From Takakia lepidozioides (Eukaryota; Plantae; Bryophyta): a stretch of 64,000 nt of DNA. The stretch lies in contig CM060732.1 in the NCBI GenBank assembly GCA_030704615.1, forward strand, positions 63,488,001 to 63,552,000. The letters run 5' to 3'. The notes under the pieces are model-generated. The model was not told where the DNA came from. It did no database searches and saw only the letters and a program-made list of their open reading frames with translations. Of the stretch, positions 16,193-51,384 are shown piece after piece. Position numbers and translations under genes: made by a program. Within the stretch, counting starts at the first letter, position 1. The number at the start of each line of letters is the position of its first letter.

Positions 16193-16309
16193 AACCACTC
16201 CAGGGTTTAAATCTGCCTTGACCCCTGGATTGACACTTGGGCCAATCCCAATATGTAAAAGCTAGCTATTTCCTAGCTAGTTTCACACTAGTGGTAAAAT
16301 AACTTGACA
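16193..16309 (-). mobile_element. Truncated 5' terminus (117 bp) of a further DNMT-element copy, head-to-tail with copy 1
   Basis: Near-identical to 31090-31214 and 38970-39092. It is separated from the copy-1 3' end by only GC and is truncated at TAACCAC, which is shared with the flanking C-rich sequence. Confidence 0.85.
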
Positions 16310-16384
16310 GCTGTCGTGCGCATACATATCGCTATACAACTACATCGCTGTCCAAAACCACACAACACATATGCACACCACACA

Positions 16385-16520
16385 CAGTATATCACTAGTC
16401 CACCACTAGTCCAGCCACTAGTCCACCACTTGTCCAGCCACTAGTCCAACCACTAGGCTACAACTAGTCAGTCACTGGGCTGCCACTATGTTGCACACTA
16501 TGGCAGTCACTAGTCCACAC
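16385..16520. repeat. 11-12-bp CCACTAGT(CCA) subterminal tandem repeats
   Basis: About 8 degenerate copies of CACTAGTCCAC/CACTAGTCCAGC near the element 3' end. Confidence 0.85.
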
Positions 16521-16781
16521 AATCGCCCCCCTAGCTGGTGCTTAGGTCCCTTTAAGTCCAGGTAGCCACAAGATGTGATAGTGACCATAGCCTCACTAAG
16601 TCCTCCACCACTATCCCTACTACACTCAAACTCGATAGATCAAGAGGTCGGGTGCAAGAGTTGCCCCATCGTTAGTCGCCATCTTACAACCTGTGAACTT
16701 GAGCTTGGGATCTCATGTATTGACTCCTATGAGCTTGGCCTCCCATGTCTTGTTAGATGCCTCCAGTCATGTCCACTGCCA

Positions 16782-16931
16782 CTATCCCAAGCAGTGTGTA
16801 CACAACCAATCTCCGTTAGGAACCTTCTCAAGAGGTGGAGTCAAGCATCCCATATGCCAACCCCTTGAGCATCGATCACACACCAGTATGGTGGCTGCCC
16901 CTTTGGCAGACCCACAAAGCATGCACCTCAA
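16782..16931 (-). pseudogene. PHD finger at the C-terminus of the element polyprotein
   Basis: CMLC...LVCDRCSRGWHMGCLTPPLEKVPNGDWLCTHC has canonical C4-H-C3 spacing. Confidence 0.92.
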
Positions 16932-17029
16932 ACCTGCAGGTACCACTGCCAAGTTTTGGTCAACTCTGCCATCGACATTGGAAAGGTGACATGACGCACA
17001 ATTACGCACATGGTCCTTCCAAGTCATGC

Positions 17030-17800
17030 CATCCCGACCCCTGAGGGCAACACCTCTCGAACCCTCAGAATAACACGCCCTGCAGTAACATCCAGTGTCG
17101 TAGGAGCAGTCTGCTGCAAATAAACATAGTCACCACTAAACCTCCGAACCCTAGGACGATATCATCCACCACGTATAGTGGCATACCTCAACGTATCACG
17201 GTGCTGTACAATGACAAGGTTCTCAAAAGCCATGGGCATGACTTTCTTGAACAACTCTACACGCTGATCACATGCACGTACCCACACGTCCGGATCGTCA
17301 AGGTTAAGGACTTGAGCAGTGTCCCTACGAATGGCTGCAGGCAAATCTGGCTCTCGGCCAAAGAGAAGGAAATATGGTGAGAAGGAGGCAAGTGATGATT
17401 GTTTGCTGAACTTGTAGCCCATGGCTAGCCAAGGTACCTGAAGATCCCAATCTCCTAGGTGTCTTTTTGCAAGCCATACTTGCGCAAACCCCCCTTCACC
17501 GTCTGCACCACTCTCTCTGCCAAGCCATCGGCCTCAGGATGATCCCGAGAAGTGGTACAGTGGTCTATCAAGGCTTTATCACACAAAGCCTGAAAAGCGT
17601 TGAATGAAGCACGCACCCTGTCACACACCATGCACCTAGCCACGAACTGTTGCACCTCTGTGTGCATACCACGCCACCAATACTGCCCCTGCAGTAAACT
17701 ATGAGTGCGTCACACTCCAAAATGCCCCAACTCCTCATGGGCATGCCGCACTAACCGTGCACTGTGTTGGGTGAGGCACGATCCTCACCCGACCATCCTC
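17030..17800 (-). pseudogene. Gypsy-type integrase with in-frame deletion of most of the DDE core
   Basis: HHCC zinc finger (HEELGHFG...YWWRGM...CMVC) is joined directly to FQALCDKALIDHCTTSRDHPEADGLAERVVQTVK, then WDLQVP, FSPYFLLFGREP and GDYVYL. The segment carrying both catalytic Asp residues is absent. Confidence 0.88.
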
Positions 17801-18099
17801 CCACACTCGAAGCAGGTGTACCCCTCCCACTTGAACCTCTTGGCTCGTTGTAGGATCCGATCCCTCTCATTGGCAGTCACACTAGCTGTCGTGTCTCCAG
17901 TGCGGAGGTAGTCCAACACAACCGAATCCTCATGTATATCTCTGGCACCACCTGGCTCATCACTAGCCTCAGGGTCCTCAGACACTCCGTCTACAGTCAT
18001 CCCTGTTAAAGGTCCAACCTGACCTCCCGATGCCAAGATACACAAAAAGGCAGATGCATGTCATCCCGACACCATCTCCTCGTCCGTCTCACCATGCCA

Positions 18100-18270
18100 C
18101 CGAGCTCCAGTGTCATCCTGCTGGCTCATGCATGGATTGCGACTCAATCCATCCGCATCCCTATTGACCAAACCCGGTCGATGTACAACCTGAACATGTC
18201 TCTCATGCTCCTCCACCGTAGCACGAGAGGCAAAGCAATTCCTGTAAGCCTCAGGAACCGCCGTATACGT
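18100..18270 (-). pseudogene. Fused remnants of RT and RNaseH (almost entirely deleted)
   Basis: AYRNCFAS|RATVEEHERHV|QVVHRPGLVNRDADGLSR: the pre-RT helix, the segment after YxDD and the RNaseH C-terminal motif are abutted in one frame. Confidence 0.75.
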
Positions 18271-18669
18271 CGTCTCTCTCCTCTAGTGACAATAGGTCCA
18301 ATGTCAGGCTCCCAATTGCCCTTCGTAACTGCAACCTTAAGTCCAGCAGACTTAGAGGTAGAGGACGCGTCTCGTGGTTGCTATGCCGCAACCTCTTGAG
18401 CAGTACTCCATGCCTGCTCAGTCAATGACAAGGCCTCATCCTGCCCCATCATCTCATCCTTAAGGACCTCCTCAACCCGAGAAGAATCCCCAACCTCATC
18501 CATCACAGCCGCTTTGGCTGCCAACTCCCTCTGAACCTCGAGCACCTCCCACGTGTGCCATGGATGTCTACACCCTGTGGTCCTCACCGGCTCGCCCCCA
18601 CTCACTGCCTGTACCGTCTCGGTAGGCAGAAAGACCGTCAAGGGAAGTGCACTCCGCACTCTTCGTTGC

Positions 18670-19172
18670 TCAGCCATAGCCAAGCTGATAATCCAGGTCA
18701 AGCAATTTAGATTTATTGCTTGCCCCAACACCTGACGACGTGATGCCTCAGAAAGATAAGGCACCACCGTGGTCCCAGTGGAAAAACCCATAACCCGCTC
18801 TCGCTCGTCGGCATTAGGCTCCACTAATTGCTGCAACTGAGCATCCCACAGGAGGCCAGGTCCATTATCTCGGAAAGCATGCGATCCTGGGAAGTTGAGC
18901 ATTGTAGGTAGTGCTGCTCGTGGTTGACCCACCTTGTTGACCACTGCCAAAGGCGAACGGTCATCGTGTCTCACACGCTGAGACTGCCTCCCTGTGTCCA
19001 AAATACTATCCATTGTGAGGTGTGCTGGCCGCTGCACCCCATCAAATGCACGCTTAAGCAGTGCGGGTGGCATCAAGTTAGTCCACCATAACCGTGGACG
19101 ATGAGCCCGTGACCCCACTGTAGCTGCATCCAGCAACACTGCTGACCCAAGCCACGACCGGACTTGATGCAC
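18670..19172 (-). pseudogene. DNMT3-like C5 DNA methyltransferase, C-terminal half (motifs VIII-X), copy 1
   Basis: LLDAATVGSRAHRPRLWWTN (VIII), EPNADERERVMGFSTGTT (IX), RRQVLGQAINLNCLTWII (X). Confidence 0.88.
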
Positions 19173-19570
19173 TGGGGCTGTGATGGGCTGTGACAGGCTG
19201 TGGTGGGCTGTGCCCTGTGGCCTGTGGGGCTGTGATGGGCTGTGATGGGCTGTGACAGGCTGTGGCCTGTGGGGCTGTGACGGGCTGTGAGGGGCTGTGG
19301 CCGTTGGGCTGTGACCCCTGTGACCTGTGTAGGGCTGTGATAGGCTGTGCCATGTGGTCTGTGGGGCTGTGACAGGCTGTGGCGGGCTAGGACAAGCTGT
19401 GCCCTGTGGCCTATGGGGCTGTGAGGGGCTGTGACAGGCTGTGGCCTTTGGGGCTGTGACCCTGTGACCTTTGTAGGGCTGTGACAGGCTGCGGCCTGTG
19501 GGGCTGTGACCCTGTGACCTATGTAGGGCTGTGACAGGCTGTGGCCTGTGTGGGGCTGTGACGGCTGTGA
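19173..19570. repeat. GGCTGTGA / TCACAGCC minisatellite (part of element leader, moved by the inversion)
   Basis: Dense 9-11-bp units, same family as 29008-29510 and 36390-37235. Confidence 0.95.
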
Positions 19571-20316
19571 CCAGTGAGCTGTGTGGGCCTGTGCTGGTCT
19601 GTGGTGGCCCGTATTGACCTGTGGACGACTTGTGCTGACTCGTGGAGGCACTGGTGGACTGCCTAAGGACTGGCATGTGGTCTTGAAAGCCAAATTTTGA
19701 AGCTCGTGGAGGGCGGTTTGAGGAGTATCTTCATGATATTCCCATGGTTATGCAAGTGAGGGAAGAGAGGAAAGGAAGAGTGTTGGGATGAGGGCATGCT
19801 GGGGTTAGGCATTGCTTTAGCTTCTCTTCGTCGTAGTTTCCACCCTCTCATTAGGCCAAGACCTTTCCGTAGGTGGAGGCAAGAGTCAGTCCGGGTTTGG
19901 GTTGGGGTGTCCTTGGAGGAGCAACACCGTGGAGTTGTTTTTGGTATGGGGGAGTTGTCGTTCTGATTTCTTGTGTTTGGATCCCCTCCATACCTGCATG
20001 CTTGACTGTGCGCCATGCTAGTTTTGTGTGGGCGCTTGTTTTTATAGGTGATTGGTCCGGATTTGATCACCGGCCAGTCCTAGAGCATGCTGTCGATGGT
20101 GAGGCTGGGGTGATGACCAGTCAGACCATCATTGTTTCTCCTATGGTGAGGTTGGAGGTGATGACCAGCCAACCATAGGAGTGCTTGCGGTGGATACAGG
20201 TACAGGTGTAGGCTATGTTAGGAACCTAGTATTCCAAACCATAAGCCGCAACAGGTTCTCTACCCGGTTACCTTGTAGAGAGGGGGTTAGGGACATGTTC
20301 ATGACCGGTTGAGTGA

Positions 20317-21780
20317 TTGTTTGTCAACACAGAGGTGCCACTAGTTGCTGGGGACAGTGCCGGTTCGAGCAATAGCGATACTAGTGGGTACACGAGACGA
20401 GGTATGCGGTTTAGGCCACCTTCACCTCCTGTGTCTTTTACGGAAGGTTCTAATTCGGATTGTGAATCAAGAGGACTCATACCGGCGGTGCAAGTTGTTT
20501 CCTTGCCATTGTTGTGGGACACAATGGAGGAGATGTATGGAGCTACCAAGGGGCCACGAAGGTACTCTAGGGCGGTGGGCACCATCGAGTTGGATGATTT
20601 TATCCAAGAGTTGATAGTTGGTGTGATTTGCAGCAAATGCGCAATCCACAACTATTTACGCCTTTCATGGCATGGAAGGGGCTGTTTCAACACCTTGAGG
20701 GGCCGCCTATGGATGATTACCATGAGTTTAGGCGGGGGCATAAGGTTGAGATCAAGGAGTGGAGGATGTACTGGTCACCCGACTATGTCTCGATCACTAG
20801 GGGCACTAGAGCCACGAGGGCAGTGGCTACACCTGCCGCTGCACCGACAGCTTCAACAAGCAGCAGTGGGACTAGTGGAACTAGTGGTACAGTAGCTACG
20901 ACGTCCACCCAAGCCACTACCGCACCAGCACTAGTACCCGTGCGTACCTTCAATCCTGTTGTGGAGTTCTTCGAAGAGTTGAGAGGGAACTACCAAGGGG
21001 TGAGGACAGAGAAGTTGCGGAGTTTGCAAGAGTTCCAACGGAAGCCAACCGAGAGCATGAGGGAGGCTTTCACTCGCATGAGGTGCTTGATAAATGTAAC
21101 CCAAGGGGTTACGGAAGCTCAGGCAGTCCAATTCTGGTATGGGATATTAGACAAGGAGCTGAGGAGAAGGGTGCGGGATGCAACTCTTCTACAAGCGGCC
21201 CAACCCACCTTAGCAAATGTGTTTTTGCTGGCAGAGCGGATAGAGCTCAACATGGTGGAGGAACGAGTGGTCATGGTGGGATTTGCTAAGGAGACACCAC
21301 GGGGTAGTGGTGCTCCTAGCCAACCACTACCTCAATGTGCTCAAGGCAACAAGGGGGCTCAGATGAAGCTCAGGGAAGGCAGAGAGGACCTCAGATGCAG
21401 GGGTTTCTCCTTTCATTTGCTGGCCAACAACGGGCGGATGTGGTGTGCTGGACATGTGGAGGACCCCATGTCAAGAAGGATTGCCCAGAGGGAGGCAAAG
21501 GGCCGGCACATGCACAGCCTGCACAGTTGCAGTGTGGGCATTGTGGCAAGCACGGGCATGGAGAGGCCCAGTGTTATGGTTTGCATCTTGAGTTGGGCCC
21601 AAGCCAGTTCCAAGGGAACAATGGTGGCCGGGGGCGAGGTGGAGCAGCCCAGAGAGGACGAGGTGGCCAGGCACGAGGTGCAGGCCAAGGGCAAGCTCAA
21701 CATGGCCAAGGACGCGGAGGTCAGGGTATTGACCAAGGCATGGCCAACCGGCTTCAGCAGCTAGAGCAGAGGCTCACTGC
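20317..21780 (+). pseudogene. gag (capsid-like region plus two CCHC zinc knuckles), frameshifted, copy 1 (inside inversion)
   Basis: LQEFQRKPTESMREAFTRM (MHR-like), CWTCGGPHVKKDC, CGHCGKHGHGEAQC and RGG-rich tract. Frameshifts near 20612 and within 21320-21440. Confidence 0.85.
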
Positions 21781-23974
21781 CATAGCTACAGCTCAGGTGG
21801 TACCGGCTCCAAGGCCGGATGGTCCACCTCCTGCTCCTGAGGGAGGAGATATGGGAGGCATGGGATTCATGTGCGGAGCAGCATTACCACTACTGCAGGT
21901 GGAGTCTGCTGCAGCCGTGACTCGAGGAGCAGCACGAGTTCTTGAGCCACGAGGTGCAGAGATGGAGTTGGATCCACAGCGTGGGGAGGCAAGCCGTCAG
22001 GCTAGGCTTCCTCAGCCATTCACATTGGCGGAGACAGTGTCGACGCCATCCATGGCACCTAGTTCTCGCCCGACTATTACTGAGGCGGAGGTTACTATGC
22101 CATTGGGGAGAGCTACACGGGTAGCACCACTACCTAGTGTTGCCAATGCTACGGCAACTAGTGTGCTGCTAGGAGCGGCCACATCTGTGTGTCAGGCTCT
22201 ATTGTTCTCGGCTACCATGATTGCGACACCGGGGGTAAGACCAGCTGAGGTGTTCAGGCTGGCAGCTATACTCTGTGAGAGTGAGGAGGTTACACTACAA
22301 CAGATGAGCGTTTTTATGACTGCACATATGACTATTTTTTCAGTCCTATATACGTTCATGACTACATCACTCTGTAGTGAAAAAAACCATGTCATAGCGA
22401 CTAGTCTTTAGGACTGCGTTTTGCAAGTCATAGCCGTGACTGCGTGCGTGGCACCTGGAGTCATGCATAAGAGAGTGATGTAGTCACAACTCTATGACTT
22501 ACATATGACTAACTATAAGACTACATTGTCTGTTGAACGTTGCCTACATGGAGAGGCTCTAGAGAAACACGTGCACCACTGCGCAAGCGACACGTCACAA
22601 CACCTGTTGCACTCCAGATGTAACATGTGGCACTTAGACAGAATATATGACTAGCATATATGACTACTTATCTTTACACGTGGTGAAAATATGGATAAAA
22701 GAATGTCGTGTCATATAATGCCACGTATTCTAGTTCGAGCAGGGTTTATGCCGCGTGTCATCAAGAATGTTATTTGAAAATAACTTATTAGTTTATATTT
22801 TATAATTTTAAATTATTAAATTTATTTTTTATTTTTTAAAACAGGGATAGCAGCTTGGAAATTTTTATTAAATGGTATTATTGTTTAATTTAATAATGCT
22901 ATATAAAATAAAATAGATTAAATGATTTAAATTCTTCATTACATGGTGAAATTCCGATATAAAAACAGAATGGACCCCTTTTGCATACTAGCAACCACAA
23001 TGACAGTCAAAATAGACAAGTACAGGGGAATACACGCCCTGTAAATTATATTACAAAAATCCAAATGAGACCACTGTCCCAATGGATACCTCAAAGGCCA
23101 CAAGGTCCAAAAATCCATGCCTGAAAAGGCCCAGTAAGCAAAAAATAAGCAAGCCCACACACATGGGTTGTAGTACTAGTTTGTTCTGGTGCTACTAGAA
23201 TCAAAGACCCTGTTAATCAGTGCAATACTTCTTGATACGGTCGATTCTGATAAGAGAGAAAAACAGGGTGAAATGTGTTGAAGAAGGTGCCTTGATTAAC
23301 AGTGCCTGATTTGATCAATTGTGCCGCTATTGCTGCGGCTTCCAGTTGACCATCGACCCATGCAGGTTTCTTGTACCTATCCTTCCACAGGGAATCATAG
23401 GTAATCTGGAGCTTGAAATCCGGCCCTCTTGGATGAATCTGGACCCACACTCTATCCCTGCTCCTTCAGTTATCCATGCCCTGCACAAATCATGCATACA
23501 TCCTCGCCTTGCTGCTAGCAGCTGAGAATGATAGCCTAGAATTGCTTGAGCAAACACCCCAGCCCTACTTATCACACTAGTTCCTATGCTGACTTACGTC
23601 TGCTTCCAAAAAACATTCACCTTTTGCCTCGATTGTTCCACCATTGACTGAGGTCGGAAACGTATTCATACCAGAGCTTTCCTCGAGTCTCTGAGTCTCT
23701 GTTATCTATTTTTCGATACTTTCCTGTCGACCACATTGGCAGTAACATGTCAAAATCACTCCAAAACCACCATAGATCCATCAATGAGCTAACTTGCAGA
23801 ATTCAACATGAAAATTTAGGGACGACTCTGATAGCAGGGGAAAACAGGGTGAAATACGTTGAAGAAGGTACCTTCATTAGCAGCACCTTATTCTATGAAT
23901 TGTGTTGTTGCCGCTGCTGTTTTCAGTTGACCATCTACCCACTTGTAGCCGCTGTGCTATTGAAGAACGAGCCC

Positions 23975-24135
23975 CCTTCCCCCATCATTTGCTCATAGGT
24001 CTCCAAAGCCTCCATCCCGCACCCCCTACCCTGCAAGCATCACACTCCACGAAACCACATCTCGTTCAGCCACAGTGTTGAACACTCCCTTGGCATCCTC
24101 GATGCACCCACATTTGGCATACATGTCCACCAGGG
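23975..24135 (-). pseudogene. Captured PLS-class PPR gene fragment
   Basis: LVDMYAKCGCIEDA-(frameshift)-VFNTVAERDVVSWSVM...EALETYEQM is the classic PLS-PPR signature. Confidence 0.8.
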
Positions 24136-24225
24136 GCAGGGGCAGTGTTCAGAATCTAAACCGTGCACAAAGGTTCAGTATTCCAAGGAGGTTGGCAAAG
24201 TCTGAGTATAGGTAGGAACAGTACT

Positions 24226-24399
24226 GTGGGCTCTGCCAGTCTTCTCGCACAAGAAAACGTCACCAATTTGATGGTACGTACAGGTTCTACCAGAGCACCA
24301 ATGATCACCAGCATATACGTCAGTCATGCTTTGGCTGCGCTGCCATGCTGTCACTTGGTCTGCAACCGATGTATCCACCACCACAAGATCATCATGTAC
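24226..24399 (-). pseudogene. Captured exon of a SKIP31-like F-box protein gene
   Basis: After an AG acceptor: VHDDLVVVDTSVADQVTAWQRSQSMTDVYAGDHWCSGRTCTYHQIGDVFLCEKTGRAH. From memory this matches the conserved plant SKIP31 segment (HxCSGxTCxYxQIGDVFxCEKTG). Confidence 0.7.
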
Positions 24400-27300
24400 C
24401 TGAGAACCGAAAAAATCCACAAAACCATCTAGGTCTTTAGCTCTGTTGACCAGCAGAGGCAGCCGAGATCAGAAGCATAAATGCCATGATCATAGCCCTA
24501 GACAGCAAAACCAAGGGGACAAAATGCTTTGGAAGGAAAACTTACAGCCTGCACCAGAGGGCCTCATCAGATGCAATGCTTCGTAGGAACCGGCACACAC
24601 TTGAACATGTAGAAAGATCTTGCACAAAGATGCAATCCCAACCAGGTCACACAACCTCCAAAATATGAAAAGTTCATTACTTTTACAGCGGAAAGCCAGA
24701 CTTTCAGCACTGCCCTGACGCCCAAGACAACAGGGCCTCGGGTCGCAACATGACTGGTGATTAAAATCATGACAGACATTCACCTTTTTGGCTCGGTTGT
24801 CCCACCATTGACTGGGGTCAGAAAAGTATTCATTCCACAACTTCTCCTCATCTCTGTTACCTCTTTTTGGATACTTTCATGTTGTCACATTGGCAGTATC
24901 ATATCAAAGTCATTCCCAACTATCCCATGTTCACTCAACCAGCTAACTTGCAGAATTCAACATGAAAATTTAGGGCCGATTCTGATAAGAGGGGAAAACA
25001 GGGTGAAATGTGTTGAAGAAGGTGCCGTCATTAACAGACCATCTTCTCATTAGCAAATGTCTTGTAGCTGTTGATCCAGAGGGAATCAGAAGTAATCTTG
25101 TGTTTGAAATCCGGCCTTCTTGGATGAATCTGGACCTCTATCCCTGGTCCTTCAGCTATCCCTGCCTGTGTACAAATCATGAATACTTGATGTAAGCAGC
25201 TGACACTGACGGCGTGAAGTTCTTCCAGCAAACACCCCAACCCTAATTATTACAGTAGTTCCAATTCTGAATTGCATCTGCTTCTCTCTAGTATAGTCCA
25301 ACATGCATTCACCTTTTGGTCTCCATTGTCCCGCCATTGACTGGGGTCGGAAAAGTGTTCATTCCAAAGCTTCTCCTCATCTCTGTTACTTATTTTTGGA
25401 TACTTTCCTGCTGCTACATTGGCAGCAACTTGTCAAAGTCACTCTAAACCACCACAGATCCGCCCAACAAGCTAACTTACAGGATTCAATATGCATCTCA
25501 GGGCCGAGTCTGATGAGAGGGCAAAACAAGCTGAAATAGGTTGGTGCCCTCACCACATTGTTCTTGACCTTGTGTCATGACCCATGGAGGATTTGGCCGA
25601 CCATCAACCCAAAAAGACCTCTTGTGTGTGCTGCTTGTGTCCGTAGTCAGGTTATGTCGGATTGGTCTGTGAGAACCGCCACGGTGCAGCTGAGCAGGCA
25701 GAGATTGAAACACGGCATGCTAAGACCAAACTGACTCTCCCAAGAACCTTGTAAACATCAGGAAGAATACCAAATCATGGTACTAACAGGAGCCAAGAGC
25801 CCACATTTGCAGGATGGACAAACTTCTTCATATCGTACATTAAGAAAAAGCCAGACCTTGCGATTGCGGTTGTCCCACCATCATGAAGGATCTTTAAAAA
25901 ACTCATGTCAACTCTGCTCCATGCTCCAAGGTAGAGGTTTGTGCTCGAAAATCCGACAGCATGAACACTTTGACAAGGTCCTTTACTGAGGGATGCTAGT
26001 GAGTTTTCAACAACATTCATGCAACTTGTTTTGGGCTCCATTGGGCTCTAGACGATGAGGAACAACGAACATTTCCAGACTTACACAGATGCTAACCCAG
26101 CTTATGTTTGCAGTCTGGAGATTGTAGAGTAGTCTCTGAAAACGACTAGGGAGGATGGCGCTGAGCAGCCAGAGTCTTTTACCATAATAAGGTCGTTGCG
26201 GTAGGTCCCGATGAGCGGCTTCACCGCCAGACCAGGGCGGCTCTCGGCCCTATGTCCCAGACACCGTGTCTGTAGTCAGGTGATGTCAGATTGGTATGTG
26301 AGATCGAACCACCACGGTGCAGCTGAGCAGGCAGAGATTGAAACACGGCCTGCTAAGACCAAGCTGACTCTCCCAAGAACGGCGAGCTTCTCCTCGTCTC
26401 GTCTCTCTCCCAAAAACGGCGAGCTCGCAAGAATATTGGGAGCTTCTCCTCCTCGATGAGATGACGAGAGATGTCGGATGATGTCGGAGTTGTCTCGTCT
26501 CCTCCTCTTCTTCTCCTTCATTTGCTCAAGAGTGGGTAGGTCTGCAAAGCCTCCATCCCACGCTCCAGCATCATCACGTTCCATGATACAACATCTCTCG
26601 CAGGCGCAGAAGAAAAAAAAAAGCCCAAGTCCCAGGCCTTTGTTCAGGGAACCCTATAAGCAACTTTTTTATTTTTTTAAACCTTTTGCAAACCCTATAA
26701 GCAACTTTTTGAAAAAAAATTAACTTTTTGCACTTTGATTAATTCTAGTGGTCATAGGCTAAAATCCTACTACCATCATCATCCCTTCTATTGTTGCATC
26801 TGCCAAAACTCTCAGCCCGGACTTAAGCGAATTTGCTCATGAAGTTCGATATACCTAATCTTAAACCGTTAGATCTTATACAATCTATCGATTCAAAATA
26901 ATTTCCATGTACAACCATGACCATTGCGTATCTTAATCTCATATATTTTGTGATGCTTGTTAAGCCACGTCCATCCAGGTCCAATTTATTGAACAGATAT
27001 AAAATCCCCACACATATTCAAAGCTGATAGGAATTTGTGGTAAACATGGATGGATGAGCTCATCCAATGGATGGATCCATTCATGTATATGCCTTCAAAA
27101 TGACACGTGTAGTAATAGAATCATATAAATGCCTTTAAAATGACACGTGTAGTGATGTAGTCATATATATAGGGTTATGAAACAACCTGCACTTAGGCAG
27201 TCATAAGTTTACATGCCATGTCATGTTGTGGATGAACTCATCCAATGGATGAATACATTCGTGTATGTGGCTTCAAAATGACACGTGTATTGTTGTAGTC

Positions 27301-27779
27301 ATATAATTAGAGCTGTGAAACCATCTTCAGTCATGGAGTCATAAGATTCCATGAAACGTCGTCCACGTGTAGTCAAACATATCACACTAGTCATATAAAC
27401 CATCCCTGTCACGTGGTCAACAATGTTTGACCAATGCTCCCTAACTTTCCAGAGTCATGTAGTGATATCCATTACTACAGAGTGATAAAACTATGATTGC
27501 AACGCATTTCAGCGGTCTGTAGTCATATACCTAGTGCAGTTTTTATGACTCCGCCAAAGCCGTAGTCCTAAAAACGCTCATCTCTTGTAGTGGTACTTCA
27601 TCTTCTGCGGAGATAGTGGGAGGTGTAGTGCCGGAGGGATCCTCGGATTTGAGGGTCAAGACTGCCACGGCGGCGCCATGGCAAGCTGTAGCTGCCAGGT
27701 TGATGGAGTTACCAGCTAGGCCAGCCATTGAGCGCGCCATGGTTATACCTAGAGTTGTCATGTTAGACAACCAGGATGA

Positions 27780-28200
27780 CATTTTTCTGTTTGAGTGGAC
27801 CGGCAAGCAAGAGGTACCGGCCACTGCGGGTCTTGTAGGACTCGGGAGCTCAGCCATTGATGCTGGGCAGAGCTACTATTGCAGGCTTGGGCCTCACGGA
27901 GGCGGATATGGAGCCTTGTTCTTTCCAGATACAGACGTCTCTGGGAAGATCGGAGCAGGCTCGGGGCATGACACGGCGTGAGTTGGCTATCAGACTACGG
28001 CCGGATCATCCTACAGATAGCTCAGTGATGCGAGCCAAGGCCATTGTGACAGACGCGGTCTCATATGATGTCCTGGTTGGTGGGGCAGTGTTGTACCCCA
28101 TGGGCTTCACCCTGGATTTTTGGGAGGAGTCAGCTTCCTATAGGCCTGCATGGCTGTCAGGGGAGGGCCGACGTGTGCAGCTCCCTGTGACGTTCATAGG
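27780..28200 (+). pseudogene. Retropepsin-like aspartic protease, copy 1 (disrupted)
   Basis: LRVL*DSGAQPLMLG...YDVLVGGAVL. Copy 2 has the intact LLDSGA. Confidence 0.85.
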
Positions 28201-28539
28201 AGGAGTTGCGGTTGCCCAGCGAGGCAAGATGCCGACACTAGCAGTATTCACAGCGGTAGTGAGTTGGCCTGGAGAGTTGCTTGAGGGCAACGCTCATTCG
28301 GAGGATATGCCACCTCCGGTAGAGCAGGATGATATGTATGGTATGGCGGAGTTGCCTACCATGGTTGCTCAGACTCCATTGTGGGGCACGAGCAAGGATT
28401 TGGAGTGGGATGCTGATCGACGGGTGCAACAAGCCTGGGTGGAGGCTTTTGTACCGTCAGGAGAAGAGGAGAGTGCGGGGATTGCACCAGGACCACCTCA
28501 GTTGTCTCCATTAGACACCACACCTATTATGTGGTAGTA

Positions 28540-29007
28540 TCCGGATGAAGGCATAAGTCTTCTGGACTTGTTTGGCGGGATCAGCACCGGATTGGCTGTT
28601 GTGTTACAGGAAGATGTATGAGTTCGGCGTTACCTGTATGTGGAGAGGGATGAGACTGCACGACGCGTTTCACTTCGCCATGTTGCTGAGTTGGTGCAGC
28701 GGTACCCTGAGTTGTTGTCGGTGTCTGGCGTTCGTGGATATCAGCAGGCCTTGCCAGCAGACATCTCTTTGCTGGGGGCGCAGGATTTGGAGCGGGTTGG
28801 CTTCATTGATTTGGTAGTGGCAGGTTGGCCCTGCCAAGGGTATTCATCAGCCGGGCATGGCAATGGATTGCGAGACTCGAGGTCGGGTCTGTTTTGGGAA
28901 ATGATGCGGGTTTTGCGCCACTTGTAGCTTTATCAGGCTGTATCTCCAGCATACATCTTGGAGAATGTGCCACTGATGGGCGATTCTCGGGCCAGGGTGA
29001 TGGCCAG
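28540..29007 (+). pseudogene. DNMT3-like C5 DNA methyltransferase, N-terminal half (motifs I-VI), copy 1
   Basis: LLDLFGGISTG (I), YLYVERD (II), PADISLL (III), DLVVAGWPCQGYS (IV, catalytic PC), ILENV (VI). Premature TAG stops; cut by the inversion breakpoint at 29007. Confidence 0.9.
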
Positions 29008-29510
29008 ACAGGCCACAGGGCACAGCCTGTCACAGCCCGCCACAGCCCATCACAGCCCATCACAACCTGTCACAGCTCGCCACAGCTTGTCACAGCCCGT
29101 CACAGCCCCTCATAGCCCGTCACGGCCCCACAGGCCACAGGGCACAGCCTGCCATAGCCCGCCACAGCCCGTCACAGCCCCACAGGCCACTGGGCACAGC
29201 CTGTTACAGCCCCTCACAGCCCATCACAACTCGCCACAGCCCCACAGGCCACAAGGCACAGCCTGTCACAACCCCTCATAGCTCGTCACAGCCCCACATG
29301 CCACAGGACACAACCTGTCACAGCCCCTCACAGCCCGTCACAGCCCGCCACAGCCTGTCGCAGCCCCTCACAGCCCGTCACAACCCCACAGGCCACATGG
29401 CACAACCTGTCACAGCCCCTCATAGCCCCACAGGCCACAAGGCATAGCCTGTCACAGCCACCATAGCCAATCACAGCCTGTCACAGCCCGTCACAGCCCC
29501 ACAGGCCACT
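29008..29510. repeat. TCACAGCC minisatellite of element leader, copy 1
   Basis: Dense CACAGCCC/GTCACAGCC/CAGGCCAC units. Confidence 0.95.
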
Positions 29511-29999
29511 CATGACAGTTTAGCCATTTCTCCAAGGGGTTTAACCACGCCAAGCTAGGGTTTGTGTCTCTTGGACTCTCGCTTCTTTGCACCGAGCTAT
29601 GGCGGCTGTGAAGAAATCAGCAAGGTATTCTTGCTCTTTCGGCTCCCACACACCACCAATAATAGCCCTAAGCCATGAGGAAGATGGTTGCCACAAACCA
29701 AGCCTTCTTTCTCACTTGGACTCCCCAAACATGCCACTAAACTCAATGGCAAACAACCAAGCCTTGATGGTTTCCAGCACTTGTGAGCACTCATTCAAGC
29801 GTTTCCCTTGGCCATAGCATTTGTCTTAGAGCCTATTCCAGCCCCCTACACTTGCCACTTTAAGAGCCATGCTCTATCTAGGCTTGAGGTTGAAACCCCA
29901 ACTCAGAACACACTCTACAAGTGTCGGACTGTCACATAAGAGCAGATCAGCCCCTTACTTTCTCTTCTAGTTCTCTAAAGCTTGGAAACAAAAGCCCAA

Positions 30000-30330
30000 T
30001 GGACTGAAGGCATGCTCCACACATGCCCCACTCTCACCACCAGAGAATCAGCCCCTTTGCTTTCTTTCTTGCACCCACCAACCTGAAAATACACGCTTCA
30101 GCGGGCTGGAAGCATGCTCCACACATGCCCTACAGGGAAACCAGCTGCTTTCTTCCTTTCTTGCACTCCCAAACCTGAAAGTACAAGCCTTCAACAGGCT
30201 GAAAGCATGCTCCACACATGCATTGCTCTCACATAAGGAAGTCAGCCCTTCCCTCTTCCTTGCTTGCCCTCCAAGCTTGAAGATGGAAGCTTCAATGAGT
30301 TGATAACATGCTCCACACATGCAACCTCTT
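30000..30330. repeat. Four ~100-bp degenerate repeats with core CATGCTCCACACATGC in the element leader (also 37740-38060)
   Basis: Cores at ~30011, 30113, 30206 and 30307, with matching cores in copy 2. Confidence 0.85.
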
Positions 30331-32533
30331 CACACAAGAGGTATCAGCCCCCTATCTTGGCTCCTTACCTCCTTGATGCTCTCTAAGACAAGACTAAGCA
30401 CTCCGCAGCCCTTGCCAAGCTCCTGAAACCCTAAGGCTTACATTTCCAGCCACAAGACACTCCTCTTGTGTTGCAAGAGCTCTTCTTCCAAGCTCTGAAA
30501 CCCTAGGTGCACATTCCATGGCCTTGCCGCACCTCTTAGCTCCTGTTCCAGCCCTGCTCTTGCCATGACAAGAGCCCTCTCAATGCTGAAGCTCGAGATT
30601 GAAACCCAATCTCAACATACTCCACAAAGTGCACTGATTTGCCCCAAGCCAAATCAGCCTTTTCGCTTGGTCTTGCAATCCTGCAGCATGGTGCTTTCAT
30701 CTCTGAAGCTGAAGATCGAATGCCAAGGTCTACCACCTCGTAACCCACATCGCCTCCGCTTTTAACAACCAATAGCTCCACGGTGCTCCTTGCATAATAA
30801 CCTGGTTTCTCTCATTCTCAAGCAAAAACCACAAGTGCTACAACTAACTCGTATCTAGCACTCACAGATACGAGCTCATCTTTCTCGAGTGATAAAGAAG
30901 AAGAATACAAGCACAAGCTTATGCGAGCTCACAGCTGAAGCATAAACTCATGCATATATAACCTCATCACTCAAATACAAGTCAAGCCAAGTGCACCCCA
31001 CGCCATGGGGAATCCACACTACGGCGCCATAGCTAGAGGCGGTGAGGCTCAACTTGAGAAAGATGAGCCTCCCGCGCTTGCCGTGAAGATAACCACTCCA
31101 GGGCCTAAAGCTGCCTTGACCCCTGGATTGACACTTGGGCCAATACCAAATGTCAATATGTAAAAGCTAGCTATTTCATAGCTAGTTTCACACTAGTGGT
31201 AAAATAACTTGACACAGTAACAGTCCACAATGATGGTGTTCAAAAATCCATAGCGGAGACATTTCTTATCGGATTCATGATTGGAGAGTTGCTATGGGTG
31301 CGTATTGAAACTAGGAATCCAATGACATATATAGTTGTTGGTTTAAATGAGTTAATTCAATTTCAATTGATGACACCATCAATTGCAGTCATCTAAAACT
31401 GTGCTGGTAACGTCCATTTTGGTCCAGTCAACCCTGCATTCACCTAGATTTGAAGATGGTTGCACAACGGACAGCTGATAATGCATGCACTTCTAGGGAT
31501 TTTTTTTTGCTCTTTTGGATGATGTTTTCTTTTCCTACCCACCACAATCAATGTTTTTCTTTGGTGATCCCTTTTTGCCCCTGCATTGTTTTCTCCCACT
31601 TGTAGTTTCACATTTCCAAACCCCCTTCCCCCCGGGTCTTTTTTTTCTATATATTGATCCCATTTTGTCCGATCCCCCAAGTATCAGCTCTCGTTTAGGT
31701 CGATCCCCCAGGTGTCACCTCTATGTTGTTTGATCTCCCACGTGTCAATTCCCTTGATGTCCGATCCCCCAACATTTGTTCCCCCCTAATTTGCGAACCC
31801 CACGTGTGACCAGTTTCTCATCATCCTCCTCCACCTGGCCCTCCCGCTTGCCCGCGTACCCTCAGGTTCCTCGGCCACCCCCCCCCCCCAACCCGCTCGT
31901 CCGCCCCACCCTCGATTCTCCCCGATCCCCCACCATCAACGCCCCCTCCCTTCAACGGCACGATCCCCGCGCACCTCGCTATCTCGCCCCGCCCCATCAA
32001 TCCCCCCTCACTTGCATCCCTGATCCCACAACCCGTCCCCTCCGCCATGTGGCAGGGCCCCGCTGTCGATCCCCCCCCCCCGCCATCGAGGCCCCCTCAC
32101 TTGCACGGAGGCGATCCCACGCCCGACCCCCCGCCATCAGTCCCCCCTCCGTGCCCCCCTAACCACGGCTGTCGATGCCCCATCCGTAAACGGCACATCC
32201 CCCGGCAGCTGCTACTCTACTGCAGACCGTTTAGGCATGGCAGCTGCTATGACGACTTTAGTAGTACATGAAGTAAAGTGTCTTTCATGCAGTCCAGATT
32301 TGGGTGGGATCTTGGATGCAGATTTGCCGCCAGGCCAGATTGATGGCTCAATTAGGTATCAGATACGTGTACATGAATGGGGGCTTATTTGCGATTGTGA
32401 TCCTGCGATTCCAGCCCCTCTTTGCTTTCATTTTCATGCACTAAATTGTATCTTTCTTTGGTGTCAGCATTCTGATTATTTGGGGAGGGGTACTAGTATG
32501 TCATGTGTTTTTATGTGTTTAGGGCTTTGGTGG

Positions 32534-33165
32534 CTATCCACTGTGAGATGTGCTGGCCGCTGCACCCCATCAAATGCACGCTTGGAGCAATGCGGGTGGC
32601 ATCAAGTTAGTCCACCATAGCCGTGGACGATGAGCCCGTGACCCCACTGTAGCTGCATCTAGCAACACTGCTGACCCAAGCCATGACCGGACTTGATGCA
32701 CACTGGCCATCACCCTGGCCCGAGAATCGCCCATTAGTGGCACATTCTCCCAGATGAATGCTGGAGATACAGCTTGATGAAGCTGCAAGTGGCGCAAAAC
32801 CCGCACCATCTCCCAAAACAGACCCGACCTCGAGTCTCGCAATCCATTGCCATGCCCGGCTGATGAATGCCCTTGGCAGGGCCAACCTGCCACTACCAGA
32901 TCAATGGAGCCAACCCACTCCCAAATCCCGCGCCCCCAGCAACGAATGCTGTTGGCAAGGCCTGCTGATATCCACGAATTGCAGACACCGACAACAACTC
33001 AGGGTACCGCTGCACCAACTGAGCAACATGGCGAAGTGAAATGCATCGTGCAGTCTCATCCCTCTCCACATACAGGTAACGCCAAACTCGTACACCTGCC
33101 TGTAACACAGCAGCCAATCCAGTGCTGATCCCACCAAACAAGTCCAGAAGACAAATGCCTGTATC
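32534..33165 (-). pseudogene. DNMT3-like C5 DNA methyltransferase motifs I-VIII, copy 2
   Basis: ICLLDLFGGISTG, YLYVERD, AGWPCQGHS, IWENV and AHRPRLWWTN; frameshifted near 32900-32950. Confidence 0.9.
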
Positions 33166-33499
33166 CGGATACTGCCACACAATAGGTGTGGTGTCCAATG
33201 GAGACAACTGAGGTGGTCTTGGTGCAATCCCCGCACTCTCCTCCTCTCCTGACGGTACAAAAGCCTCCACCCAGGCTTGTTGCACCCGTTGATCAGCATC
33301 CCGCTGCAAATCCTTGCTCGTGCCCCACAATGGAGTCTGAGCAACCATGGTAGGCAACTCCGCCATACCATACATGTCATCCTGCTCTCCCGGAGGTGGC
33401 ACATCCTCTGAATGAGCGTTGCCCTCAAGCAACTCTCTAGGCCAACTCACTGCCGCTGTGAATGCTGCTAGTGTCGGCATCTTGCCTCGCTGGGCAACC

Positions 33500-36093
33500 G
33501 CAACTCCTCATATGAACGTCACAGGGAGCTGCACACGCCGACCCTCCCCTGACTGCCATGCAGGCCTATAGGAAGCTGATTCCTCCCAAAAATCCAGGGT
33601 GAAGCCCATGGGATACAACACTGCCCCACCAACCAGGACATCGTATGAGACCGCGTCTGTCACAATGGCCTTGGCTCGCATCACTGAGCTATCTGTAGGG
33701 TGATCCGGCCGTAGTCTGATAGCCAATTCACACCGTGTCATGCCCCGAGCCTGCTCCGATTCTCCCAGAGACGTATGTATCTAGAAAGGACAAGGCTCCA
33801 TATCCGCCTCCGTGATGCCCAAGCCTGCAATAGCAGCTCTGCCCAGCATCAATGCCTGAGCTCCCGAGTCCAGCAAGACCCGCAGTGGCTGGTACCTCTT
33901 GCCTGCCGATCCACTCAAACAAAAAATGCCATCCTGGTTGTCTAACATGACAACTCCAGGTATCACCATGGCGCGCTCAATAGCTGGCCTAGCTGGCAGC
34001 TCCATCAACCTGGCAGCTGCAGCTTGCCATGACGCCGCCGTGGCAGTCTTGACCCTCAAATCCGAGGATCCCTCCGGCACTACATCTCCCACTATCTCCG
34101 CAGAAGATGAAGTAACCTCCTCACTCTCACAGAGTGTAGCTGCCAGCCTGAACACCTCAGCTGGTCTTACCCCCGACGTCGCAATCATGGTAGCCGAGAA
34201 CAATGGAGCCTGACACACAGATGTGGCCGCTCCTAGCAGCACACTAGCTGCCGTAGCCTTGACAACACTAGGTAGTGGTGCTACCCGTGTAGCTCTCCCC
34301 AGTGGCATAATAACCTCCGCCTCGGTAACAGTCGGGCGAGAACTAGGTGCCATGGATGGCGTCGACACTGTCTCCGCCAATGTGAATGACTGAGGAAGCC
34401 TAGCCTGACGGCTTGCCTCCCCATGCTGTGGATCCAACTCCACCTCTGCACCTCGTGGCTCAGGAACTCGTGCTGCTCCTCGAATCACGGCTGCAGCAGA
34501 CTCCACCTGCACTAGTGGTAGTGCTGCTCCACACATGAATCCCATGCCTCCCATATCTCCTCCCTCAGGAGCAGGAGGTGGACCATCCGGCCTTAGAGCC
34601 GGTACAACCTCAGCTGTAGTCATGGCAGCGAGCCTCTGCTCTAGCTGCTGAAGCCGGTTGGCCATGCCTTGGTCAACACTCTGACCTCCGCGTCCTTGGC
34701 CATGTTGAGCTTGCCCTTGGCCTGCACCTCGTGGCTGGCCACCTCATCCTCTCCGGGCTGCTCCACCTCGCCCCCGGCCACCATTGTTCCCTTGGAACTG
34801 GCCTGGGCGCAACTCAGGATGCAAACCATAACACTGGGCCTCTCCATGCCCGTGCTTGCCACAATGCCCACACTGCAACTGTGCAGGCTGTGCATGTGCC
34901 GGCCCTTTGCCTCCCTCTGGGCAATCCTTCTGGACATGGGGTCCTCCACATGTCCAGCACACCACATCTGCCCGTTGTTGGCCAGCAAATGAAAGGAGAA
35001 ACCCCTGCATCTGAGGTCCTCTCTGCCTTCCCTGAGCTTCATCTGAGCCCCCTTGTTGCCTTGAGCACATTGAGGTAGTGGTTGGCTAGGAGCACCACTA
35101 CCCCGTGGTGTCTCCTTAGCAAATCCCACCATGACCACTCGTTCCTCCACCATGTTGAGCTCTATCCGCTCTGCCAGCAAAAACACATTTGCTAAGGTGG
35201 GTTGGGCCGCTTGTAGAAGAGTTGCATCCCGCACCCTTCTCCTCAGCTCCTTGTCCAATATCCCATACCAGAATTGGACTGCCTGAGCTTCCGTAACCCC
35301 TTGGGTTACATTTATCAAGCGCCTCATGCGAGTGAAAGCCTCCCTCAAGCTCTCGGTCGGCTTCCGTTGGAACTCTTGCAAGCTCCGCAACTTCTCTGTC
35401 CTCACCCCTTGGTAGTTCCCTCTAAACTCTTCGAAGAACTCCACAATAGGGTTGAAGGCAGGCACGGGTACTAGTGCCGGTGCGGTAGTGGCTTGGGTGG
35501 ACGTCGTAGCTACTGTACCACCAGTCCCACTAGTCCCACTGCTCTCTACTCGCTGAAGCTGCCGGTGCAGCGGCAGGTGTAGCCACTGCCCTCGTGGCTC
35601 TAGTGCCCCTAGTGATCGAGACATAGTCGGGTGACCAGTGCATCCTCCACTCCTCGATCTCAACCTCATGCCCCCGCCTGAACTCATGGTAATCATCCAT
35701 AAGCGGCCCCTCAAGGTGCTGAAACAGCCCCTTCCATGCCATGAAAGGCGTAAATAGTTGTGGATTGTGCATTTGTTGCAAATCACACCAACTATCAAAC
35801 TCTTGGATAAAATCATCCAACTCGATGGTGCCCACCGCCCCAGAGTACCTTCGTGGCCCCTTGGTAGCTCCATACATCTCCTCCATTGTGTCCCACAACA
35901 ATGGCAAAGAAACAACTTGCACCGCCGGTATGAGTCCTCCTGATTCACAATCCGAATCAGAACCTTCCGTAGAAGACACAGGAGGTGAAGGTGGCCTAAA
36001 CCGCACACCTTGTCTCATGTACCCACTAGTATCGCTAGTACTCGAACCGGCACTGTCCCCAGCAACTAGTGGCACCTCCGTGTTGACACTCAA
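33500..36093 (-). pseudogene. gag and protease, copy 2 (frameshifted)
   Basis: ORF pieces 35530-36093, 34641-36008, 34744-35070 (two CCHC knuckles), 33781-34665 (LRVLLDSGAQ) and 33508-33741. Confidence 0.88.
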
Positions 36094-36389
36094 CCGGTCA
36101 TGAACATGTCCCTAACCCCCTCTCCACAAGGTAACCGGGTAGAGAACCTGTTGCGGCTTATGGTTTGGAATACTAAGTTCCTAATATAGCCTACACCTGT
36201 ACTTGCATGACCATGGGAATCATGAAGATACTCCTCAAACCGCCCTCCACGAGCTTCAAAATTCGGCCTTCAAGACCACATGCCAGTCCTTAGGCAGTCC
36301 ACCAGTGCCTCCACGAGTCAGCACATGCCGTCCACAGGTCAACACGGGCCACCACAGACCAGCACAGGCCCACACAGCTCACTGGTCAT

Positions 36390-37235
36390 AGCCGTCACAG
36401 TCCCACAGGCCACTGGGCACAGCCTGTCACAGCCCCTCGCCCGTCACAGCTTGCCACAGCTCGTCACAGCCCCACAGGCCACAGAGCACAGCCCCGCACA
36501 GCCCGTCACAGCTCGCCACAGCCTGTCACAGCCCGTCACAGCCCCACAGGCCCATTGGGCACAGCCTATCACAGCCCCGCACAGCCCCCCGCAGCCCATC
36601 ACAGCCCCACAGGCCACTGGGCACAGCCTGTCACAGCCCCAAAGGCTTCAGGCACGGCCTGTCACAGCCCCTCACAGCCCATCACAGCCCCAAAGACCAC
36701 GGGCACAGCCTGTCACAGTCCCTCACAGCCCATCACAGCCCCCAAAGGCCTCAGGCACGGCCTGTCACAGCCCCTCACAGCCCCAAAGGCCACGGGCACA
36801 GCCTGTCACAGTCCCTCACAGCCCATCACAACCCCAAAGGCCTCAGGCACGGCCTGTCACAGCCCCTCACAGCCCCTCACAGCCCCAAAGGCCACGGGCA
36901 CAGCCTGTCACAGCCACAGCCCCACAGGCCACTGGGCACAGCCTGTCACAACCCCTCACAGCCCGTCACAGCCCGTCACAGCCCCCAAGGCCACTGGCGC
37001 AGCCCGTCACAGGCCCTCACAGCCCGTCACAACCCCGAAGGCCACCGCACAGGCCCTCACAGGCCCTCACAGCCCCAGCACCTGACAGCCCGTCACAGCC
37101 CGTCACAGCCCCGAAGGCCACCGGCGCAGCCCGGCACAGCCCGTCACAGCCCCAAAGGCTAGGGGCGCAGCCCGTCACAGCCCCTCATAGCCCGTCACAG
37201 CCCCAGAAGGCCACCGGCACAGCCCGTCACAGCCC
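36390..37235. repeat. TCACAGCC minisatellite of element leader, copy 2 (~850 bp, with higher-order units)
   Basis: Directly visible tandem array. Confidence 0.95.
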
Positions 37236-39092
37236 CATACATGGCCGCTCTGGCAGTTTAGCCATTTCTCCAAGGGGTTTAGCCACGCCAAGCTAGGGTT
37301 TGTGTCTCTTGGACTCTAGGCTTCTTTCCACCGAGCTATGGCGGCTGTGAGGAAATCAGCAAGGTATTCTTGCTCTTTCGGCTCCCACACACCACCATAG
37401 TAGCCCTAAGCCATGAGGTGGTTGCCACAAACCAAGCCTTCTTTCTCACTTAGCCTCCCCAAACACGCCACTAAACTCAATGACAAACAACCAAGCCCTA
37501 CTGGTTCCCAGCCCTTGTGAGCACTCATTCAAGCACTCTCCTTGGCCATAGCATCTATCTTAGAGCCTATTCCAGCCCCCTACACCTGCTGCTTCAAGAG
37601 TTGCGCTCCCTTCAAGCTTGAAGTTGAAACCCCAACTCACATAGGCCCTACAAGTGCTTTTCTTTCACTCCAAGTGGAAACCAGCCCTAGACCTTCCGTT
37701 CTAGCTCTCTAAAGCTTGAAAACAAGAGCCTCAATGGGCTGAAGGCATGCTCCACACATGCCCCCACTCTCACCATAAGAGAATCAGCTCATTTGCTTAA
37801 TTTCTTGCACCCACAAACCTGAAAATACAAGCTTCAGCAGGCTGAAAGCATGCTCCACATGCCCTACAGGGCCCCTTCCTTCTTTTCTTGCACTCCCACA
37901 CCTGAAAGTGCAAGCCTTCACCAGGCTGATAGCATGCTCCACACATGCATTGCCCTCACATAAGGGAAGTCAGCCCTTCCCTCTTCCTTGCTTGCCCTCC
38001 AAGCTTGAAGATGGAAGCTTCAATGAGCTGAATACATGCTCCACACATGCAACCTCTTCACACAAGAGATATAAGCCCCCTATCTTGGCTCCTTGGCTCC
38101 TTGATGCTCTCTAAGACAAGACTAAGCACTCCACAGCCTTTGCCAAGCTCTTGAAACCCTAAGGCTTACATTTCCAGCCACAAGACACTTCTCTTGTGGT
38201 GCAAGAGCTCTTCTTCCAAGCTCTGAAACCCTAGGTGCACATTCCATGGCCTTGCCGCACCTCTTAGCTCCTGTTCCAGCCCTGCTCTTGCCATGACAAG
38301 AGCCCTCTCAATGCTGAAGCTCGAGATTGAAACCCAATCTCATCATACTCCACAAAGTGCACTGATTTGCCCCAAGCCAAATCAGCCCTTTCGCTTGGTC
38401 TTGCAATTCTTCACACAATGAAAGCTCGCATTCCCAAGTCCAGTTCTCAGCTTTGCCACCAAAGCCACTATAACCTGCTCTTGACTGGTCCTCTTCCCAA
38501 TCGTGCTTGCTCATGCATGTACACAATCTGAAACCATCAAGGTGCCCTGGAATTACCTGTAGCATGGTGCTTTCATCTCTGAAGCTGAAGATCGAATGCC
38601 AAGGTTTACCACCTCGTAACCCACATCGCCTCTGCTTCTAACAACCAAGAGCTCCACGGTGCTCCTTGCATAACAACCTGGTTTCTCTCATTCTCAAGCA
38701 AAAACCACAAGTGCTACAACTAACTCGTATCTAGCACTCATAGATACGAGCTAATCTTTCTCGAGTGATAAAGAAGAAGAATACAAGCACAAACTCATGC
38801 GAGCTCACAAAGCTGAAGCATAAACTCATGCATATATAACCTCATCACTCAAATACAAGTCAAGCCAAGTGTACCCCACGCCATGGGGAATCCACACTAC
38901 GGCGCCATAGCTAGGCGCGGTGAGGCTCAACTTGAGAAAGATGAGCCTCCCGCGCTTGCCGTGAAGATAACCTTTCCAGGGCCTAAATCTGCCTTGACCC
39001 CTGGATTGACACTTGGGCCAATCCCAAATGTCAATATGTAAAAGCTAGCTATTTCCTAGCTAGTTTCACACTAGTGGTAAAATAACTTGACA

Positions 39093-45003: not shown

Positions 45004-45084
45004 GTCCAAACGTAATCTAGTTGAGAGCCACAAATCGAAATACTTATAATTGTTAACTGGATTTTTTTTTTCCTTTTTAAAAAA

Positions 45085-51316: not shown

Positions 51317-51384
51317 TACTATGCAAATGAGAGCTATTTAGAAAGGATTATGATGCTTTCTTTAATTCTACATCTTAAAAAGTA

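Follow-up and report, generated by a model that had tools for sequence, protein, structure and literature searches.

A 64,000-nucleotide stretch of the Takakia lepidozioides genome (GenBank assembly GCA_030704615.1, contig CM060732.1, positions 63,488,001 to 63,552,000; here, the window) holds two copies of one retrotransposon, both dead and both on the minus strand, as revealed by comparison of the window with itself. Our reading, to which we assign a probability of about 0.65, is that they belong to an abundant moss Ty3/Gypsy family whose Gag frame ends in a DNMT3-like DNA methyltransferase (MTase) that likely methylates the element's own cDNA, whose integrase carries a PHD finger that likely steers insertion, and whose ends likely arise via a circle containing two long terminal repeats (2-LTR circle). 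The kind of element is itself known from Klebsormidium; what is new is the range in land plants, the PHD finger, a conserved stop codon of a leaky type, and an integration route that appears to be unusual.

By profile and by the modeled fold of a relative, the element MTase is DNMT3-like. In six-frame translation its motifs run in unpermuted order downstream of a retropepsin LDSG motif, and each copy has a Pfam match to DNA_methylase (PF00145; E = 9e-12 in one and 2e-13 in the other). An earlier note on this DNA, made from its letters alone, had described a C5-cytosine MTase in two copies; the domain is indeed present in both, but it is split by an inversion in copy 1 and lacks its last two motifs in copy 2. 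When known enzymes were ranked with a family profile, DNMT3A (1e-16) and DNMT3B stood above DRM-type enzymes (6e-8) and HhaI (4e-5). The open MTase domain of the relative L019 yielded a fold model with a predicted local distance difference test score (pLDDT) of 88, for which Foldseek returned DNMT3A/B as the top structures (E = 2e-18; template modeling [TM] scores, 0.68/0.80; 21% identity); a model of the whole protein P0001 scored poorly (pLDDT 36) and was set aside. The assignment to DNMT3 rather than DRM, also made in the earlier note, is thus upheld. Elsewhere in the window, Pfam identified the PHD finger (PF00628, 1e-10) and Integrase_H2C2 (1e-15), with a weak match to Asp_protease_2; no match was obtained in the gag open reading frames (ORFs) or in the C-terminal half of the MTase alone.

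A metagenome scan recovered 70 loci of the family. The order Gag, protease (PR), MTase, reverse transcriptase (RT), RNase H (RH), integrase (INT), and PHD is shared by relatives in Sphagnum, Marchantia, and Calypogeia and is complete within one locus in 7 of the 70; a PHD finger, co-occurring with the MTase, is found in 12. One locus encodes an integrase core that matches a model from Sphagnum fallax at 100% identity. The RT, deleted in the window copies, is present in relatives and in one X12 contig, and that of L019 best matches Ty3 (E = 3e-86), which bears out a Gypsy origin. The proposed position of the MTase between protease and RT stands for the relatives, whereas in the window only a stub of the RT is left in copy 1 and none in copy 2. 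The family has a DDE integrase (rve plus H2C2), and Pfam found no phage-integrase match, i.e., no tyrosine recombinase, in the window or in relatives. No chromodomain follows the integrase; its place is taken by the PHD finger, a C4HC3 finger in copy 1 just as first described. An alternative order, RT-RH-MTase-INT-PHD, is seen in a chlorophyte, Hariotina, and in further records. By eye, the end region of one chlorophyte-type RT-RH-DNMT-INT-PHD protein (P0043, residues ~1740 to 1860) has the look of an amino-methyltransferase (DPW..G and TSPWF); tails of comparable length occur in P0193, P0194, P0196, and P0197, and a dual-methylase element with a PHD finger is possible. In the eukprot gene model P0045, whose prefix SM we take to denote the zygnematophyte Spirogloea, the C-terminal half of the MTase is followed by RT-like sequence, which is the bryophyte order.

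An in-frame TAG that parts the MTase from the RT-INT-PHD frame is a feature of the whole family: this position reads TAG or TAA in 45 of 46 loci, a set that is partly redundant since some loci repeat one insertion, and the stop is present in three subfamilies. Its context is GCA-TAG-CAA-CCA in the window and in L019, TAG-CAA-CTA in L060, and TAG-CAA-CCC in the Sphagnum type; UAG-CAR-YYA is described as the readthrough motif of the tobacco mosaic virus type (PMC3159437). Most Gag-bearing homologues (1,200 to 1,800 amino acids) terminate shortly past the MTase. The MTase likely ends the Gag frame, with RT-INT-PHD dependent on readthrough; because the conserved stop follows the MTase, the enzyme would be made at the level of Gag and RT-INT-PHD at a lower one.

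Complete relatives (L036, L047, and L052; 9.1 to 9.2 kb) are organized as A-coding-B-A-B, where A is ~339 bp (TGTCA...TTTTCA) and B is 112 bp (TGTGG...CGACA), and A1/A2 and B1/B2 are similarly diverged (91 to 94%). TG...CA ends, a polypurine tract (PPT), a 4-bp target duplication (in 5/5 elements having both ends), and the DDE integrase are all present as in canonical Ty3/Gypsy elements; unlike in those elements, the copies are not bounded by a pair of identical, complete LTRs, and their ends fall mid-LTR. The PPT lies directly before B1. A stretch after A1 is complementary to one inside A, ~30 nucleotides (nt) past a TATA motif, and the sequence of this pair differs between the window and Sphagnum families with its complementarity kept, which suggests that the stretch is a primer binding site (PBS) for Tf1-like self-priming. 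Self-priming has also been predicted for Tcn1 (PMC6317226). A TGG motif in A that resembles a tRNA complement-type PBS (tRNA-like) was weighed and rejected, as it is unconserved between families and located within the repeat. With the PPT before B and the PBS after A, B+A would constitute an ordinary LTR.

The B/A joint reads CA-NN-TG, with a 2-nt spacer, in 8/8 cases, four of which, the window included, are GACA-GC-TGTC. The A2/B2 joint is clean in five of seven insertions, contains filler in L036, and retains the start of the PBS in L039/L040; such variable joints fit end-joined cDNA. We infer that a 2-LTR circle opened at the B/A palindrome of its left LTR would yield exactly the A-coding-B-A-B layout, and integrase cutting of a 2-LTR circle palindrome has a precedent in foamy virus (PMC1180852). 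The window conforms to this split-repeat plan, with A1, the PBS, the PPT, B1-GC-A2, and a solo A-B unit. Some copies end at B1 (L008, L023, and L024); since L024 and L055 have a common flank and yet differ in form, recombination or assembly collapse can give rise to such copies.

In the proposed life cycle, the RNA would start within A, and Gag-PR-MTase would be made in bulk, with RT-INT-PHD supplied by readthrough at UAG-CAA-CC, so that particles would be rich in MTase. Reverse transcription, self-primed at the PBS after A and using the PPT before B, would produce a normal cDNA with B+A as its LTR, and the DNMT3-like MTase would methylate this new cDNA. The cDNA ends would then be joined into a 2-LTR circle, whose joint would persist as A2/B2. 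The DDE integrase would then cut this circle open within the palindrome in mid-LTR (CA^GC-TG), leaving CA ends with 2-nt overhangs, and insertion would follow. The PHD finger, closest to readers of histone H3 unmethylated at lysine 4 (H3K4me0), would bias insertion to chromatin without H3K4 methylation.

Several observations weigh against this life cycle. The mirror form A-B-A-coding-B is expected because a circle carries two identical B/A palindromes; it was found at 0/14 independent 5' ends and 0/2 in the window, and its absence is unexplained. PBS matches of at least 10 nt occur in only 8/13 loci, against control maxima of 7 to 10, and the target duplication of the solo A-B unit in the window is imperfect. 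The stop context of the Sphagnum type departs from the YYA consensus by one base, the MTase and RT share one frame in P0189 and P0201, and dS between families is near saturation. Finally, KnitGypsy-Dnmt3 of Klebsormidium nitens gave no methylation in yeast, an inconclusive negative, since DNMT3B failed there too (PMC5890265). Counts of CAGCTG inside the elements (1, 0, and 0, versus 1.5 expected) are not informative.

A more sweeping account, which we hold to be doubtful, is that of an old green-plant Gypsy lineage whose integration ends have shifted to the mid-LTR palindrome and which integrates solely by way of the 2-LTR circle; here a Gag-level DNMT3-like enzyme would, by methylating the cDNA, pick which of the identical palindromes is cut and pre-mark thousands of bryophyte insertions. 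Such circles are usually regarded as dead ends. It is unlikely that the split repeats come instead from template switching of the DIRS/PAT kind, with the MTase serving another job in the particle (nucleic acid binding, RNA, or choice of cut site). A-coding-B-A-B is the plan of SymbioDIRS, and a simple circle does not predict the lack of the mirror form; however, the family has a DDE integrase rather than a tyrosine recombinase, makes 4-bp duplications, places its PPT and PBS as a B+A LTR requires, and has A/B joints that vary as end-joining products do. SymbioDIRS-Dnmt3 likewise has a DNMT3-like domain, which methylates CG in yeast, but it is reported to use a tyrosine recombinase (PMC5890265).

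The PHD finger ends the integrase, ~1,000 codons and one conserved stop from the MTase. Its nearest fingers are those of CHD4, PHF12, KDM5 (PHD1), DPF, ATXR5, BAZ2A, PHF21A, and AIRE, most of which we presume to be readers of unmethylated H3K4; it has a G, not a W, two residues before the His. Given the intervening codons and stop, the finger more likely targets integration than forms an ADD-like unit with the MTase. The earlier note had likened the pair, a chromatin reader and a writer, to the ADD-plus-catalytic design of DNMT3; in such a reader-writer module, the two would jointly methylate the insertion site or host chromatin. Both domains are found together in the 12 PHD-bearing loci and again in the chlorophyte-type frame, and the finger has the presumed H3K4me0-reader character just described. 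Nevertheless, we consider this module improbable, because the stop and the RT-RH-INT domains separate its parts, retroviral-type proteases cut such polyproteins, and C-terminal integrase readers are reported, for chromodomains, to serve targeting (2026 preprint).

Motifs IV to X of the MTase are retained in 48 to 57 of 59 proteins, motif I is matched by a regular expression in 38/59, and the domain is intronless. The ratio of nonsynonymous to synonymous substitution rates (dN/dS) between families is 0.10 to 0.19 for the MTase (pairs with measurable dS), 0.14 for the integrase, and 0.15 to 0.32 for the protease; within the family it is 0.57 to 0.89 in dead copies and 0.44 for the L019/L060 pair. 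The between-family ratios point to purifying selection on the MTase. Searches with its C-terminal half and with a profile returned 52 and 51 proteins, respectively, the former including Marchantia, Calypogeia, and Sphagnum matches of up to 71% identity; no named host DNMT was among either set, nor was a named K. nitens protein among the matches. Word-seeded searches gave no fern, lycophyte, or hornwort matches, a weak absence as the range outside bryophytes is poorly sampled, and an Atlas search gave generic C5-MTase clusters only. In a tree of 61 rows, which contained no host DNMT3 rows and excluded proteins with an MTase match of <250 or >450 amino acids, both window halves fell in a 14-row clade with bryophyte proteins (support, 98); this tree and that of the invertase below were quick searches with support from the Shimodaira-Hasegawa-like approximate likelihood ratio test (SH-aLRT) only. 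That the MTase is a functionless piece of a host gene, captured and carried passively, is very improbable and already largely refuted, for the within-family ratios that would suit it are set against between-family constraint, retained catalytic motifs without introns, and nearest kin that are themselves carried by elements, in mosses, liverworts, and a chlorophyte; recent passive capture, the check named in the earlier note, is likewise contradicted by the many copies.

The closest known element is KnitGypsy-Dnmt3 (de Mendoza et al. 2018, PMC5890265), which shares Gypsy domains, an unpermuted intronless DNMT3-like domain, purifying selection, and a DIRS-like repeat plan with the moss family, which differs in its land-plant hosts and very high abundance. 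In KnitGypsy-Dnmt3 the DNMT is placed in the Pol ORF, whereas the moss MTase ends the Gag-PR frame, in frame with the RT but behind the conserved stop. The accessible text of that paper mentions no PHD finger, readthrough stop, self-priming PBS, or circle-opening route, and the supplement text searched has 0 matches for PHD or Marchantia. EpiLTRs of Cymbomonas and Euglena (bioRxiv 10.64898/2026.05.21.726589) likewise combine a DNMT and a chromatin reader in an LTR element; their DNMTs are described as DNMT4-related, accompanied by DAM and a chromodomain, and the authors set these elements apart from the Gypsy-DNMT3 of streptophytes. Tcn1/Tf1-Sushi chromoviruses (Neumann et al. 2019, PMC6317226) resemble the family in predicted self-priming, a histone reader at the integrase end, and occurrence in mosses but have a chromodomain rather than a PHD finger and ordinary LTRs, and the portion consulted mentions no MTase. 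In foamy virus (PMC1180852), a DDE integrase opens the circle palindrome to give processed ends, as it may in the moss family; in the virus it is the LTR-LTR joint that is cut, whereas here the cut would be mid-LTR, with the LTR-LTR joint kept inside the insertion. DNMT-bearing elements were said to be absent from land plants (Morozov et al., PMC6338049), and later papers, in the parts seen, mention the KnitGypsy-Dnmt3 type only as streptophyte. Within the open-access literature searched, we found no bryophyte description and no PHD, readthrough, or circle route. The novelty is lower than the earlier note supposed, since the kind is known from Klebsormidium and gene models of Marchantia, Sphagnum, and Calypogeia already contain it.

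A moss host is likely, since the product of an intact five-exon alkaline/neutral invertase gene in the window (5382-9739, minus strand; spliced in contigs of runs guessed to be RNA) falls in a clade of five rows that includes two proteins from Sphagnum (SH-aLRT, 99; 36 rows), in agreement with the land-plant host surmised earlier. In DNA run X1, 79,198 contigs fall on 6.4 kb of the element, and summed depth is 0.6 to 1.0 million on the element versus 57 to 80 on the host gene; this ratio cannot be read as a copy number but suggests that the copies run into the thousands. One guessed-RNA contig runs from the MTase end to the integrase; for a family this abundant, trace DNA could explain it, and no conclusion on expression is drawn. 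At 17820-17888 and 21560-21625, guessed-RNA contigs from two runs join short element fragments to unrelated sequence, perhaps host transcripts with element pieces.

The features of both copies are listed in the table. Copy 1 (31214 to 16192) carries a 9.8-kb inversion, with breaks in a 10-bp leader array and mid-MTase, that divides the MTase; 39 X1 contigs continue from 19172 into the N-terminal half. Compared with Marchantia and Sphagnum proteins, copy 1 has lost the RT, most of the RNase H, and some of the integrase core, through a ~1.25-kb deletion near 18228/18195-18207 and another at 17595. X1 contigs pass these breaks into the MTase, RNase H, integrase core, and repeat A, also carrying on into A beyond 16192, and the damage is therefore particular to copy 1. 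Copy 2 (39092 to 32533) has the MTase joint intact and stops after RLWWTNL, past motif VIII, without ERERVMGF, RQVLGQ, or an RT. With these stops, frameshifts, and truncations, both copies are decayed, as had been noted. Their A1 repeats are 96.9% identical, and in coding parts C-to-T differences affect 11 to 12% of CG, 8 to 11% of CHG, and 3 to 5% of CHH sites, as expected of dead copies methylated by the host.

Features of the MTase element and of other elements in the window
Feature	Position	Strand	Remarks
Repeat A1, copy 1	30890..31214	-	325 bp, begins TGTCA, ends CA; element 5' end
Putative self-priming PBS, copy 1	30874..30890	-	17 nt, 1 mismatch; complementary to stretch within A
Leader, copy 1, with first part of 10-bp tandem array	29008..30873	-	self-comparison
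Inverted block, copy 1	19173..29007	+	rest of array, gag, protease, MTase N-terminal half
gag, copy 1	20524..21600	+	two CCHC knuckles, frameshifted
Aspartic protease (LDSG), copy 1	27770..28198	+	frameshifted
MTase motifs I-VI, copy 1	28547..29005	+	LDLFGG, VERD, GWPCQ, ENV; two in-frame stops
MTase motifs VIII-X, copy 1	18651..19172	-	AHRPRLWWTN, ERERVMGF, RQVLGQ; frame open
Conserved stop GCA-TAG-CAA-CCA, MTase/RT boundary	18375..18386	-	TAG at 18383-18381; likely readthrough site
RT N-terminal stub and RNase H C-terminal remnant, copy 1	18030..18374	-	deletion in between
Integrase, copy 1	17030..17943	-	H2C2 finger, partly deleted core, C-terminal part
C4HC3 PHD finger closing integrase frame, copy 1	16782..16946	-	Pfam
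PPT, copy 1	16523..16532	-	same motif in relatives
Repeat B1, copy 1	16312..16521	-	TGTG...GACA
GC spacer and repeat A2, copy 1	16192..16311	-	A2 cut off after 118 bp; B/A joint = palindrome GACA-GC-TGTC
Repeat A1, copy 2	38766..39092	-	comparison with copy 1
Copy 2 body	32533..38765	-	leader, array, gag, protease (33981-33511), and MTase motifs I-VIII (33159-32533); truncated thereafter
Solo A-B unit, older subfamily	45443..45826	-	~80% identity; A/B joint CA-T-TG; flanks have only CAT in common
Nested CACTA transposon	22293..27592		CACTA...TAGTG ends, 3-bp duplication with one mismatch; unrelated to MTase element

The C/A-rich 10-bp array lies at 29008-29509, 19173-19600, and 36385-37245 and was not found in Sphagnum-type loci. 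A 444-bp leader segment (19757-20203) is present in copy 1 and absent from copy 2 and some X1 contigs, a length polymorphism of the family. A separate element "Y" (29008-31215 and 36201-39093) was considered and dismissed, being A1 plus the leader of the MTase element. Copy 2 keeps the empty site of the CACTA insertion. The CACTA element contains decayed repeats of a WWDNR...PDF-type motif, presumably akin to the organellar single-stranded DNA-binding PDF motif, in which Pfam found no match; it is possibly a gene-capturing CACTA. C-rich repeats at 15960-16191 and 31700-32160, similar to each other, adjoin the truncated ends of both copies, and nested inverted repeats at 50821-51821 and 45061-46802 are likely nonautonomous DNA transposons.

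These findings place DNMT-bearing retrotransposons in land plants, the genetic model Marchantia included, contrary to a published statement of their absence, and what retrotransposon DNMTs do can thereby be tested in a plant amenable to experiments. Such elements may also account for bryophyte gene models labeled only "DNA methyltransferase". For the split repeats, noted without a mechanism in KnitGypsy, the structure of the ends suggests a specific route, and standard two-LTR finders would likely overlook elements with mid-LTR ends.

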